A stretch of DNA of 63,805 bases, filler included. It is 16 parts of 16 records of this genome, joined end to end, with 100 filler letters (N's around TTAATTAATTAA, not from the genome) between each part and the next. Parts side by side here need not be neighbours in the genome. Positions count along the whole stretch, not along the records: positions 37,497 to 40,085 come from SRR11831580_5634; 15 more parts are not named here. One strand, 5' to 3'. This document shows positions 37,497-40,185 of this stretch, piece after piece. The notes below the pieces were generated by a model. The model searched no databases. It saw only the letters and a list, made by a program, of their open reading frames with translations, and was not told the origin of the DNA. A program made the position numbers and the translations under genes. The number at the start of each line of letters is the position of its first letter. Positions within the stretch are counted from its first letter, which is position 1.

Positions 37497-37593
37497 GTTT
37501 GCTCATCGATGAGCAAACATTTTCCCCATAAACCGGCACATTGCAATAAAACACTCAAAAAATGGGGTTGCGTTTGCTCATCGATGAGCAAAC
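37497..37593. repeat. Two perfect 22-bp palindromes GTTTGCTCATCGATGAGCAAAC (37497-37518 and 37572-37593)
   Basis: Read directly; 53-bp spacer; the contig starts exactly at the first copy. Confidence 0.97.
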
Positions 37594-37628
37594 TTTTGCA
37601 AAGCATCGTACTCCCAAAAAACACGTAC

Positions 37629-37923
37629 TCGAATAGGGCCACTTTCTTCGGATCGAGGTTGCGGGCCTGCAATGGATGAGGCTTCAGATTGGTCAGCAGC
37701 ACGTGCTCCCCAGTCTTCACGATGAACTTGGTCTGCAGGCGCGCCAGCGGCCAGCGGAGAAGCTCCACGATGTCTGCTTGAGTCAGCTCTCCAGGGGGCT
37801 TCGGCATCAAAACCTTGTCTGCGCACGGTTCAGACGCGATCACGTGCACATGCAGTAAGTACATTTAGCTTCGGTACCGGGAGGACCTGATGCAGGCTGC
37901 GCAAGCTGTTTCTTCGGCGGCAT
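37629..37923 (-). CDS. Spliced gene, 5' part (exons about 37923-37863 and 37818-37629); ParB-like N-terminal domain suspected; truncated
   Basis: Joined reading MPPKKQLAQPASGPPGTEAK-YKVLMPKP...HVLLTNLKPHPLQARNLDPKKVALF; GTAC..CAG intron restores the frame; the next donor GTACGT at 37628 opens the palindrome-containing intron. Confidence 0.55.
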
Positions 37924-38281
37924 GATCACACACACCCGCACACAGAGAAAGAATGAACCTGAGCTCCAAAGTTGCGGGTTTTGTGTGACAGTTTGAAGTC
38001 TCGGTATTGGGTATATGGACACAAATAAACAGTTGGAAAATTGAGCTTAGTGGGTCTTCAAAACTTCGCAACTTGCAGTCCGTTCTCATTCTTTCTTGCG
38101 CGGCGCATGGCGTAAAGTGGCCATGAACACAGAACCACACGCTGTGAAGCACCTAGACGAAGATGACGAGTGTGATCGGGTGGAAGTAGTGGTTCCGACA
38201 TGCGTAGAGAAGCTGGTACAGTACATTGGGGGGCATGTGTGACTATAGGTTAGGGTTAGGGGTTCGATATGGAGCCCTTCT

Positions 38282-38439
38282 GTTTGCTCATCGATGAGCA
38301 AACCTTTCCTAATATTTTTCAAGTTTGTTTGCTCATCGATGAGCAAACAGTTCTCGTTCTTACAGAGTTCGTTTGCTCATCGATGAGCAAACGGTTGTGT
38401 CTACTGCTTGCGTGATAGTTTGCTCATCGATGAGCAATC
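38282..38439. repeat. Array of four 22-bp palindromes (starts 38282, 38327, 38371, 38418) with unique 23, 22 and 25-bp spacers
   Basis: Read directly; three perfect copies, the last with one mismatch near its 3' end. Confidence 0.97.
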
Positions 38440-39483
38440 TCTTTGTATAGCATGAGGACGCCGAACGTATTGCATGGAACGAGGAACACTACCCCACTGA
38501 GTTCCTCAACGCAACTGGAGACATGGAAGAGATCTTCCCCAACTACGCGTACATCTACTATTACTTGCGACACGGCTGCTACGCTCCAGGATTCCCAGAG
38601 GACAAGTCCTACCGAGCCAACTTTCGGCGCGACTGCAACAAGTTCGTTTACGATCGCCTGAAGCGTCGTTTGTTCATGGTGGTGAAACCTTTGAGCAAGA
38701 CTGGCGAAGCTACTCTGCTAGTGCCAGTGGCAGATGGACCCGAAGACGCACGCGCAGCGTTGTACAACTTGCACTACTGCACCACACTCAAACTGGGTAC
38801 CCACGACGGCGTGGTGCGCATGTGGCAAGCCGTCCGTCAACAACTTTACTTCCCGAATCAGTTCCGGTGGTGCGAACGCGTCTGCGAGGCGTGTGTCACC
38901 TGCTGTCAAGTGAAGGGTGGTAAAGTTGGAACCAAGCCACCCGTCAAAGCTATTCTTACCCGCAAGACCAACCACCGGGTACGCGTGGTTGTCGAGCACG
39001 GTTCGTCTTCTCAATTAACCTTTGCGCAGTGGACCGTGGACTTCACGCAGATGCCCCACGTCGACCGTGCGACTGGGTACCGCTACCTGTTGGTAGTGGT
39101 CGACCACCTGTCCAAGTACGTGTGGTCGGGCGGCTTTCCCACGGAGCACTGCCAGCCGGTCGTTGACTTCCTACGCAAGCTGTGGACCAGTGGCTTCAGC
39201 GTGCCGCACATTGTGGCGGCCGACAACGGCGCATCGTTCGTGGGGAAGGAATTCTGGAACCTGTGCCACGAGTACGGTGCCAAGATTGTTCACGGTCGCC
39301 CTCTCCACCCGCAGTCGCAGGGGGTGGTGGAAATCAAGAACCGCACCATCAAGGGAAAGATCGCGTGCATCCTCTTGGACGGTGACCAGGCAGGGGACAC
39401 GTGGTACCAGCACGTGGCTTGGCTCATCGCGCGCCTCAACAGCCAGCCGTCCGGCACTACGAGAATTGCGCCTGTTCGAGTAC

Positions 39484-39593
39484 GTTTGCTCATCGATGAA
39501 CAAACCTTTCGCGCGGTGGGGGGTTCTTGTTTGCTCATCGATGAGCAAACCTGCCTCTGACTTCTGCCTACGTTTGCTCATCGATGAGCAAAG
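39484..39593. repeat. Array of three 22-bp palindromes (starts 39484, 39529, 39572) with unique 23 and 21-bp spacers
   Basis: Read directly; the first and last copies each carry one mismatch; inside intron 39480-39628. Confidence 0.97.
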
Positions 39594-40185
39594 TTTCTTG
39601 TAACCGGTTCTGATCATATTTTCTACAGCTGATGTATCCAGACGCCCCGCCTCGCTTCCCCACTATACCTGGTCTGCCCACTCCGCGTGCTGTACGCAGC
39701 GGCTTGCAAGGCGATCAGCTGGAAGCACTGGCTGCCGACAACCAAGCTGCCAACGCACTGCGCTGGACGCAGCAGTCGGTGAACTTCCAGCCCTACCGGA
39801 AAGGAGAGCTGGTGTACGTCGCTACACCACACCGCAGTGGTATCAAGCGTGCGCCTGGTCAGGTGCTGTGGGGTGCCGCGGCAACCATCTACACCTACAA
39901 CGAACACGGCCACACCTACCGCCTCAAGTGGGTGACCGATGGCCACCTCGGAGAGTTGCCGGGTGGTCTGTCGATCCGAGAGTGGGGTCACGCCGACTTG
40001 AAGAAGGTCCCGTACGCACAGACAACGGACATCCTCCGCAACAAGGTTGTTCCCAGCATTGGCTACTCCCCGTCCCAGTTTGCCANNNNNNNNNNNNNNN
40101 NNNNNNNNNNNNNNNNNNNNNNNNNNNNNTTAATTAATTAANNNNNNNNNNNNNNNNNNNNNNNNNNNNNNNNNNNNNNNNNNNN

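Follow-up and report, generated by a model that had tools for sequence, protein, structure and literature searches.

A Ginger-like integrase gene and a possibly linked array of short palindromes in its non-coding DNA

We analysed a window of 63,805 nucleotides, which is not a single DNA molecule but 16 contigs chained through N...TTAATTAATTAA...N linkers. One of these contigs (37497-40085; 2,589 bp, GC 0.547, assembly linkers at both ends) coincides exactly with a region singled out by a first-pass annotation, and contains two head-to-head genes together with nine copies of one 22-bp palindrome. That annotation had proposed a new mobile system made of a spliced integrase, a divergent ParB-like partner and intron-borne palindrome arrays serving as the partner's binding sites. 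Here, we describe instead a Ginger-like integrase gene with an unusual intronic palindrome array, the two being possibly linked; this is not an established new mobile system. The reading we favour, to which we give a probability of about 0.45, is that the palindrome would be a passive hairpin-forming mini-repeat, tolerated in the spliced DNA of a Ginger-like locus.

Results

Nine palindromes outside the exons of one contig

The palindrome, GTTTGCTCATCGATGAGCAAAC, is found nine times in the window at up to three mismatches, six times exactly and three times with one mismatch, where 0.01 copies are expected and none of 100 shuffles reaches nine. The copies start at 37497, 37572, 38282, 38327, 38371, 38418, 39484, 39529 and 39572, i.e. 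all within contig 37497-40085, as the first-pass annotation had reported. The 11-nt half-site, searched at up to one mismatch, gives 18 matches inside the nine palindromes and three elsewhere in the window (1.29 expected), all three in other contigs. It is near-certain that these arrays are real and non-random. All nine copies fall in three non-coding stretches totalling 516 nt, with a GC content of 0.42-0.47, and none in the 1,779 nt of exons.

The copies form three arrays. Array A (37497-37593) has two exact copies (37497-37518 and 37572-37593) separated by a spacer of 53 bp, and lies downstream of a GTACGT donor in the minus-strand gene. Past this donor GC drops from 0.584 in minus-strand exon 2 to 0.417, and GC at third codon positions (GC3) from 0.76 to about 0.48 by hand count. 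Array B (38282-38439) has four copies, exact at 38282, 38327 and 38371 and with one mismatch at 38418, separated by 23, 22 and 25 bp; its last copy ends 11 nt ahead of integrase exon 2. Array C (39484-39593) has three copies, with one mismatch at 39484 and 39572 and exact at 39529, separated by 23 and 21 bp; its first copy begins 4 nt past the donor of integrase intron 3. Only array C can be read as firmly intronic, because both flanking exons have homologues. Array B would lie in an intron only if the tentative first exon of the integrase is real, and otherwise in the 5' leader.

The three imperfect copies are each the first or the last of their array, with the mismatch in the right half-site (plus strand), and the interior copies are all perfect. 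Tandem Repeats Finder reports a 44-bp period with 84% match, which may stem mainly from the palindromes themselves. The left edge of the contig (37497) is exactly the first base of a palindrome copy, and at the right edge (40078-40085) eight bases match the first nine of the palindrome with one base missing, so that both assembly breaks may lie at palindrome-like sequence. Apart from the palindromes, no pair of terminal inverted repeats (TIRs) was found in the contig.

The exact 22-mer has no match in public genome contigs, none in viral contigs and two in metagenome contigs, each as a single copy. One of these (L001, 1913-1934) overlaps what appears to be the beginning of a helix-turn-helix (XRE-like) gene of bacterial aspect, and the other sits in GC-rich, bacterial-looking DNA; we judged both to be chance or unrelated matches. 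Neither the 22-mer nor two of its sub-strings were found in the searchable literature. Searches there on palindromic repeats in spliceosomal introns and introners yielded organelle repeats, stwintrons and introners, and no arrays of short perfect palindromes inside older introns.

A spliced integrase gene on the plus strand

The integrase gene would begin with a tentative exon 1 of 31 codons on the plus strand (38123-38215, donor CTG/GTACAG), which has no homologue to support it. Then comes intron 1 (38216-38450, 235 nt), or a 5' leader if exon 1 is not real, which holds array B. Exon 2 (38451-38978) encodes an N-terminal extension and the HHCC zinc-binding domain, and aligns with P0005, P0010, P0016, P0018 and P0029, numbered as in a set of 159 proteins from our integrase search (P0001-P0159). 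Exon 3 (39030-39479, GC3 0.827) encodes the DDE catalytic core. In the open frame 38451-39480, Pfam returns rve at 1.6e-13, for this core, and Integrase_H2C2 at 1.6e-6, for the zinc-binding domain. The family alignment shows almost no variation at D218, D258 and E294, and 35 residues separate D258 from E294 (D,D-35-E). Exon 4 (39629-40085), open at the contig end, encodes a linker and a predicted small beta-barrel C-terminal domain. The plus-strand exons have a GC content of 0.52-0.62, and in-frame GC3 is 0.66-0.83 in exons 2-4; the two palindrome-bearing integrase introns have a GC content of 0.43-0.47.

Comparison with relatives supports the positions of two of the introns. Intron 2 (38979-39029, palindrome-free) is in frame, and we read it as an intron because it starts with GTACGC, ends with CAG and is 51 nt long. 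Of six relatives whose sequence covers this site, five lack the 17 residues obtained by reading through it, and the remaining one, P0003, carries an unrelated insert of its own exactly there; P0005 ends three residues beyond the site. This looks like a shared intron position that was read through by a prokaryotic gene caller. At intron 3 (39480-39628, 149 nt, GTACGT...CAG), which holds array C, the match to P0002 and P0151 stops with the final residue of exon 3, past which both diverge into a read-through beginning with V-R, like that of the query. In P0014, the core passes without a break into the homologous counterpart of exon 4 (BLASTP E 4e-13, 32% identity over 127 residues). Apparently, the positions of introns 2 and 3 are common to relatives at 41-52% identity.

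AlphaFold2 models exon 4 as a small beta-barrel, with a predicted local distance difference test (pLDDT) score of 65-83 in the core and 59.9 on average over the whole model. The folds that match it do so weakly, the best at E 0.01; they are Tudor, SH3 and chromo-like domains, and a lentiviral intasome chain ranks 31st and 40th. The predicted fold is compatible with an integrase C-terminal domain, and no more than that. Upstream of the integrase ATG stand a divergent promoter and a gene on the opposite strand, not a reverse transcriptase (RT). The expectation of a spliced HHCC and D,D-35-E integrase with neither RT nor gag upstream was thus borne out by the Pfam matches, the catalytic triad, the intron positions and the RT-less relatives described below. 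We regard it as near-certain that the gene is real and spliced, and that it belongs among the Gypsy/Ginger integrases that lack RT. It is apparently intact, catalytic triad included, and the protein could still be active.

Relatives and class of the integrase

An exhaustive profile search returned 11,157 proteins at E<=0.001, only two of which reach E<=1e-30, and the best match is 52% identical to the query; a word-based search gave only one distant fish retroelement protein. We built a FastTree phylogeny of the core with 156 rows, i.e. the query and 155 of the 159 integrase-search proteins. The other four were left out, two not matching the core and two matching it without covering it. The query falls in a clade of eight rows (SH-like support 98), itself within clades of 27 rows (80) and 32 rows (90). 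Among the other 31 rows of the latter, we scanned 12 with Pfam; all 12 have rve, with or without H2C2, and none has RT or RNase H, although these frames come from short contigs and an RT might be on a separate exon. The RT-bearing matches P0006 and P0011 fall outside the 32-row clade. All 18 clade members that we looked up come from metagenome or raw-read assemblies, and their clusters are named only "hypothetical protein", plus "transposase InsO family protein" for P0003. The top ESM Atlas cluster for the integrase is eukaryotic, with one member assigned to Perkinsozoa, which we keep as a lead only and did not adopt.

Four related loci were found in genome contigs, at 32-40% identity, and one in viral contigs, at 33%. 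Judging by these identities, the five loci appear too distant to belong to the same family. They show no repeated palindrome of at least 12 nt, except for a TA microsatellite in L006.

A stand-alone Gypsy-type integrase is given as the defining trait of Ginger transposases and of the host genes derived from them in the available passages of the Ginger description (PMC2836005). We take the gene to be such a stand-alone integrase, i.e. either a Ginger-like transposase or a host gene derived from one. The earlier label of Ginger-like is hence a fair description, as the nearest relatives lack RT and neither RT nor gag lies upstream. As in Ginger1, the query associates an H2C2 zinc finger with a DDE core in the absence of RT. 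Ginger1 elements are also described as having TIRs of about 40-270 bp with TGTNR termini, 4-bp CCGG or CCGT target-site duplications (TSDs), and a YPYY motif (Y/F-P-Y/F-Y/F) within about 40 residues just upstream of the zinc finger (PMC2836005, in the same passages). Upstream of the HHCC domain, our family alignment has a conserved [Y/F]-P ... N-[F/L]-[R/K]-[R/K] ... [F/Y] block, which could be this motif. Ginger2/Tdd transposases are described there as having H2C2 and DDE without GPY/F and YPYY, with TIRs of 45-297 bp and TSDs of 4-5 bp (PMC2836005), the latter being 6 bp according to the available text of the GingerRoot paper. The H2C2 and DDE features of the query are compatible with this class too.

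A eukaryotic contig in a mixed bin

The contig has no match in the nearest genome, G001, and among 401 genomes of the family of G001 only 35-bp chance matches, in two of them. An exact look-up of three of its open reading frames in the protein collection found none. It is near-certain that the contig is eukaryotic, because it has GT-AG introns, a contrast in composition between exons and introns (in GC and GC3), and two intron positions backed by relatives; on this point the first-pass annotation held. The neighbouring contigs are enterobacterial and of mixed origin. Contig 34585-37396 (dadX, dadA, cvrA) is 100% identical to laboratory strains of E. coli K-12, and only 81-84% to G001. Other contigs of the window are 99-100% identical to G001 and others 80-93%, as illustrated by 46587-53413 against 34585-37396. 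The bin concatenates at least two enterobacterial genomes and a eukaryote, and at least two contigs of the window are non-bacterial.

The second of these (21269-26840, minus strand; 5,572 bp, GC 0.569) carries a multi-exon gene with fragmented frames and does not match G001 either. The two contigs have the highest GTACG density among the 16, and in the second one GTACGT occurs nine times on the minus strand against three on the plus strand. For about seven of its GTACG donors, splicing to an acceptor 74-183 nt further on would restore a long GC3-rich frame. Given this shared donor type and composition, the second contig probably comes from the same eukaryote. Searches of its gene against Pfam and PDB gave no identification. 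Midasin, a guess that we had made for its product, found no confirmation in either database and was dropped.

Predicted folding of the introns

With its flanks, intron 3 has a predicted folding energy of -67.8 kcal/mol (z -6.6), copies 1 and 3 of array C pairing from one side of the intron to the other. For intron 1 the values are -109 kcal/mol and z -8.9, the pairs being copies 1-2 and 3-4 of array B. The predicted perfect stems between copies reach 22 bp. Without its array, intron 3 would be 39 nt long, near the 44 and 51 nt of the palindrome-free introns of the two genes, and intron 1 would be 77 nt long. In Rfam, the palindrome units match only generic microRNA-precursor models below threshold, at 22-37 bits against gathering scores of 39-90. 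Families such as mir-1255 and mir-1278 are among them, the best reaching 36.8 bits where the gathering score is 63.

The minus-strand neighbour and the shared promoter region

The neighbouring gene starts at 37923 on the minus strand, with the first ATG of its open frame. Its exon 1 (37863-37923) has 20 codons and one nucleotide, and is followed by a palindrome-free intron 1 of 44 nt (37819-37862, GTACTT...CAG), across which the frame is restored. Exon 2 (37629-37818) spans 190 nt, with 62 full codons and split codons, and is the piece for which the ParB likeness had been claimed; its in-frame GC3 is 0.758, against 0.667 and 0.333 in the other frames. A GA/GTACGT donor then opens a probable intron 2 (37497-37628), of GC 0.417 against 0.584, which runs to the contig end.

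We found no support for a ParB-like neighbour. The 62-residue exon matches no family in Pfam, PHROGs or NCBIfam at E<=10, the ParBc profile (ParB/Srx N-terminal domain) included, and its 82-residue read-through version matches none at E<=1. It has no match in PDB (phmmer, E<=10), no homologue of similar or longer length in a collection of 5.8 billion protein clusters, and no usable match in the ESM Atlas. Its single-sequence AlphaFold2 model is one helix with a pLDDT of 59.8, which is uninformative. Near the end of the exon, a motif of about 25 residues resembles what we take to be the start of the ParB/sulfiredoxin domain, which is a lead and not a result. Sulfiredoxin is a eukaryotic housekeeping enzyme of the ParB/Srx fold, and the motif presumably fits it as well as it fits a DNA-binding ParB. 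The second half of such a domain, with its conserved catalytic or arginine-rich motif, would fall past the left edge of the contig. The label of ParB-like is unsupported, and because it fails all tests on the 62-residue exon, the model of a partner with its cognate sites is only an analogy. No ParA-like open reading frame was found on the contig.

The two genes are head to head, as first described, the ATGs at 37923 (minus) and 38123 (plus) being separated by 199 bp. This divergent promoter and leader region (37924-38122) contains an 11-nt perfect inverted repeat (37946-37956 and 38086-38096), whose arms, read in sense, precede the minus-strand ATG by 23-33 nt and the plus-strand ATG by 27-37 nt. 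The motif has no other exact copy in the window. It gives indirect support to both start codons, including that of the tentative exon 1, but might just as well be a core-promoter motif that is common in this organism.

Discussion

We read the contig as what would be nuclear DNA of a microbial eukaryote, binned among enterobacterial contigs. Its plus-strand gene encodes an apparently intact Ty3/Gypsy-type integrase lacking RT, with three GTAC-type introns in our gene model and a divergently oriented neighbour. The self-complementary 22-bp repeat would have built up exclusively in non-coding sequence of the two genes, most of it removed by splicing, and would be tolerated there, its copies pairing or folding back in the pre-mRNA and the introns being spliced out. 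It would not be a parS-like site served by a ParB-like neighbour. What the data show is the repeat, the gene model and the family of the integrase; the tolerance through splicing and folding, and the lack of a function for the gene pair, are both points that we infer. The idea of tolerance fits the data because the predicted stems reach 22 bp and because intron 3, once freed of its array, comes close in size to the palindrome-free introns. We rank the passive repeat first because it needs no unsupported protein function.

Several observations weigh against a passive repeat. The nine copies are nearly identical (195 of 198 bases), their start-to-start distance is 43-47 bp in five of the six intervals, and their spacers are mutually unrelated, the mean pairwise alignment score being equalled by 72 of 300 shuffles. 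Since the spacers are no more similar than shuffled ones, we rejected a recent tandem duplication of a 45-bp unit as the origin of the arrays. We know of no mechanism that would add identical 22-bp palindromes evenly without duplicating the spacer. No TSDs were found around the copies and no solo half-sites (at up to one mismatch) in the contig. The shared 11-nt leader motif hints at co-regulation of the two genes. Finally, neither the palindrome nor its half-site has any copy in contig 21269-26840, with its approximately seven candidate introns, so that the palindrome is not universal in the introns of this organism. A palindrome scattered through the introns of unrelated genes would have been a host repeat; this one gene, thin evidence as it is, leans towards a palindrome linked to the locus rather than spread evenly through introns. 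Copy identity, regular spacing, unrelated spacers and absence from the second contig thus speak against the reading that we prefer, yet they are what makes the locus worth following.

What else might the palindromes be? Among the rivals, intronic hairpin RNAs and integrase-binding sites are both live. The palindromes might act at the RNA level, hairpins of the palindrome-spacer-palindrome type yielding silencing or regulatory small RNAs, or bringing splice sites together. Perfect 22-bp stems with loops of 21-25 nt have the shape of pre-microRNAs and a stem length of 22 nt, the copies lie in transcribed non-coding RNA of both genes, and the predicted folds pair neighbouring copies with strong z-scores. 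The sub-threshold Rfam matches to microRNA precursors coincide exactly with these units, and the better among them have E-values of 1.6e-5 to 1e-3. Yet scores of 22-37 bits against gathering scores of 39-90 reflect hairpin shape only, and a palindrome folds equally well on either strand and as DNA; we consider such a role unlikely. Rather doubtful, in our opinion, is a palindrome that would be the putative recognition site of the integrase itself, its arrays being products or substrates of local integrase action as in the REP/RAYT systems. The copies do cluster around the integrase gene, and the imperfect ones are those at the array edges. The sequence of the palindrome also allows a reading in which CA closes a right end, TCGA is a palindromic core of 4 bp, and TG opens a left end; such a joint is expected where two TG...CA termini share a 4-bp target duplication, or at a circle junction. 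The Ginger and GingerRoot papers report TG...CA termini for Ginger, and for Ginger1 sequence-specific palindromic TSDs of 4 bp. But the termini would then be TGAGC, and not the TGTNR reported for Ginger, and we estimate that CA...TG at some symmetric offset occurs by chance in about one in four 22-bp palindromes. The units of 21-25 bp between joints are mutually unrelated, unlike copies of miniature inverted-repeat transposable elements (MITEs), and a palindrome has neither inside nor outside, which makes this idea not falsifiable on this contig. By analogy one might go further and imagine a eukaryotic counterpart of REP/RAYT, in which a DDE integrase, mobile or domesticated, would keep arrays of its own dyad-symmetric site, the CA-4 bp-TG joint, in its introns and in those of a co-regulated neighbour. 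Repeated integrase action at this site, and not tandem duplication, would then account for identical repeats, unrelated spacers of even size and degenerate copies at the edges. This we hold to be improbable.

Equally improbable is a two-gene mobile or episomal element, in which the minus-strand product would bind the palindromes for partition, tethering or transpososome assembly. Dimeric DNA binders do use clustered, near-identical sites with dyad symmetry, both genes have arrays and the rest of the window, contig 21269-26840 included, has none, and the shared leader motif suggests co-regulation of the pair. At 43-47 bp, the spacing also resembles the 43-bp repeat unit of F-plasmid sopC; but in sopC the unit is conserved as a whole, and here the spacers are unrelated. 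Moreover, the proposed binder is a 62-residue exon with no match to a family, to PDB or to a homologue and no usable fold, whose motif presumably resembles sulfiredoxin just as well, and no element ends were found on the contig. An artefact, be it a chimeric assembly, a cloning or synthetic construct or a mis-joined repeat, might be suspected given a mixed bin with one neighbour contig 100% identical to E. coli K-12, a contig that begins exactly at a palindrome, and a palindrome holding a 6-bp restriction-type core. We find it hardly credible in view of the unique spacers, the natural splice signals and composition of the introns, coding frames intact over four exons, two intron positions that independent relatives at 41-52% identity appear to share, and seven internal copies assembled through without a break.

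How does the locus compare with known systems? The Ginger1 and Ginger2/Tdd DNA transposons were described by Bao, Kapitonov and Jurka in 2010 (PMC2836005), Ginger2 being reported from protists and fungi. In the available passages of that paper, as in our locus, the Gypsy-type integrase stands alone without RT, has an H2C2 zinc domain and a DDE core, and is encoded by a gene with GT-AG introns, of which 1 to 4 are reported for Ginger1. The same passages yielded no internal palindrome arrays, and the string "palindrom" is absent from the GingerRoot paper. Unlike Ginger, the query locus has a divergent second gene and lacks a strict GPY/F motif: where we take the motif to lie, the query reads G-A-A, as does P0014, and P0012 reads S-I-A. 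Nor do the 152 available residues of exon 4, whose frame runs off the contig, have an OTU or Ulp1 domain in Pfam, PHROGs or NCBIfam. In the searchable literature, the terms "ParB-like", "Ginger", "transposase" and "eukaryot" never occur together in one paper. Host genes derived from Ginger (Gin-1, Gin-2 and others; PMC2836005, PMC3575427, PMC12863088), as far as the available parts of these sources describe them, share with our gene an intact integrase-like frame, intron positions common to divergent homologues, and a single copy beside another gene with which the promoter region is shared; the catalytic triad, for its part, is intact in the query.

The repeats call for other comparisons. Repetitive extragenic palindromes (REP) and bacterial interspersed mosaic elements (BIME) are short bacterial palindromes, often in evenly spaced clusters, that go with a single-copy domesticated transposase gene, RAYT. 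Like ours, they are short palindromic repeats in non-coding DNA, whose neighbouring copies can pair into long hairpins. Unlike our integrase, of the DDE type, RAYT belongs to the HUH/Y1 class, and REP are bacterial, intergenic and copied as doublets in whole units, in contrast to the unrelated spacers seen here. With parS and sopC the arrays share clustered sites of dyad symmetry, spaced by about 43-47 bp near a proposed ParB-like gene. In contrast to ParB-parS and SopB-sopC, they come without ParA and with spacers that are not conserved, and the sites would lie in introns of a eukaryotic gene. Regarding architecture only, near-identical palindromic repeats with unrelated spacers of even length and degenerate edge copies recall CRISPR arrays, from which our locus differs by its eukaryotic spliced context, a repeat of 22 bp, spacers of 21-25 bp, arrays of 2-4 units and no cas genes. 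The inverted-repeat introners of Amoebophrya also place a repeated hairpin-forming sequence inside protist introns, and a MITE-like interpretation has been proposed for them (PMC7789003, available passages). There, the repeat makes up the entire intron, which has inverted repeats at both ends and is bounded by direct repeats (PMC7789003); here, no intron is as a whole a copy of a repeat, a 22-bp unit is multiplied inside the introns, and two of the five non-coding stretches are repeat-free. Furthermore, the introns of our gene appear old, because their positions are apparently shared with relatives at 41-52% identity.

With our contig, an unnamed integrase clade seen so far only as anonymous metagenome proteins gains a member with introns. 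RT-less Gypsy-type integrases, i.e. Ginger and its relatives, are central to the debate on the relationship between LTR retrotransposons and cut-and-paste transposons, and are poorly sampled in protists. If the arrays are tied to the integrase, as its sites or its products, they would represent a new relationship between a transposase and a short repeat in eukaryotes, and introns could serve as safe harbours for cis-elements. Should the palindrome prove to be widespread in the introns of the host genome, what remains is a Ginger-like gene from a protist yet to be sequenced. Were the palindrome confined to this unit in the source genome, the interest of the locus would be sharply higher.

Other sequence features

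Some minor features of the non-coding DNA deserve mention. In integrase intron 1, a short way upstream of array B, TTAGGGTTAGGG at 38250-38261 is made of two tandem TTAGGG units of the telomere type, extended to GGTTAGGGTTAGGGG; it is the sole copy in the window, where 0.09 are expected. Both eukaryote-like contigs have CA/TG-rich runs in their non-coding DNA, such as CACACACACCCGCACACA at 37926-37945 in the intergenic region, and a TG/CA run at 26800-26840, at the end of contig 21269-26840.

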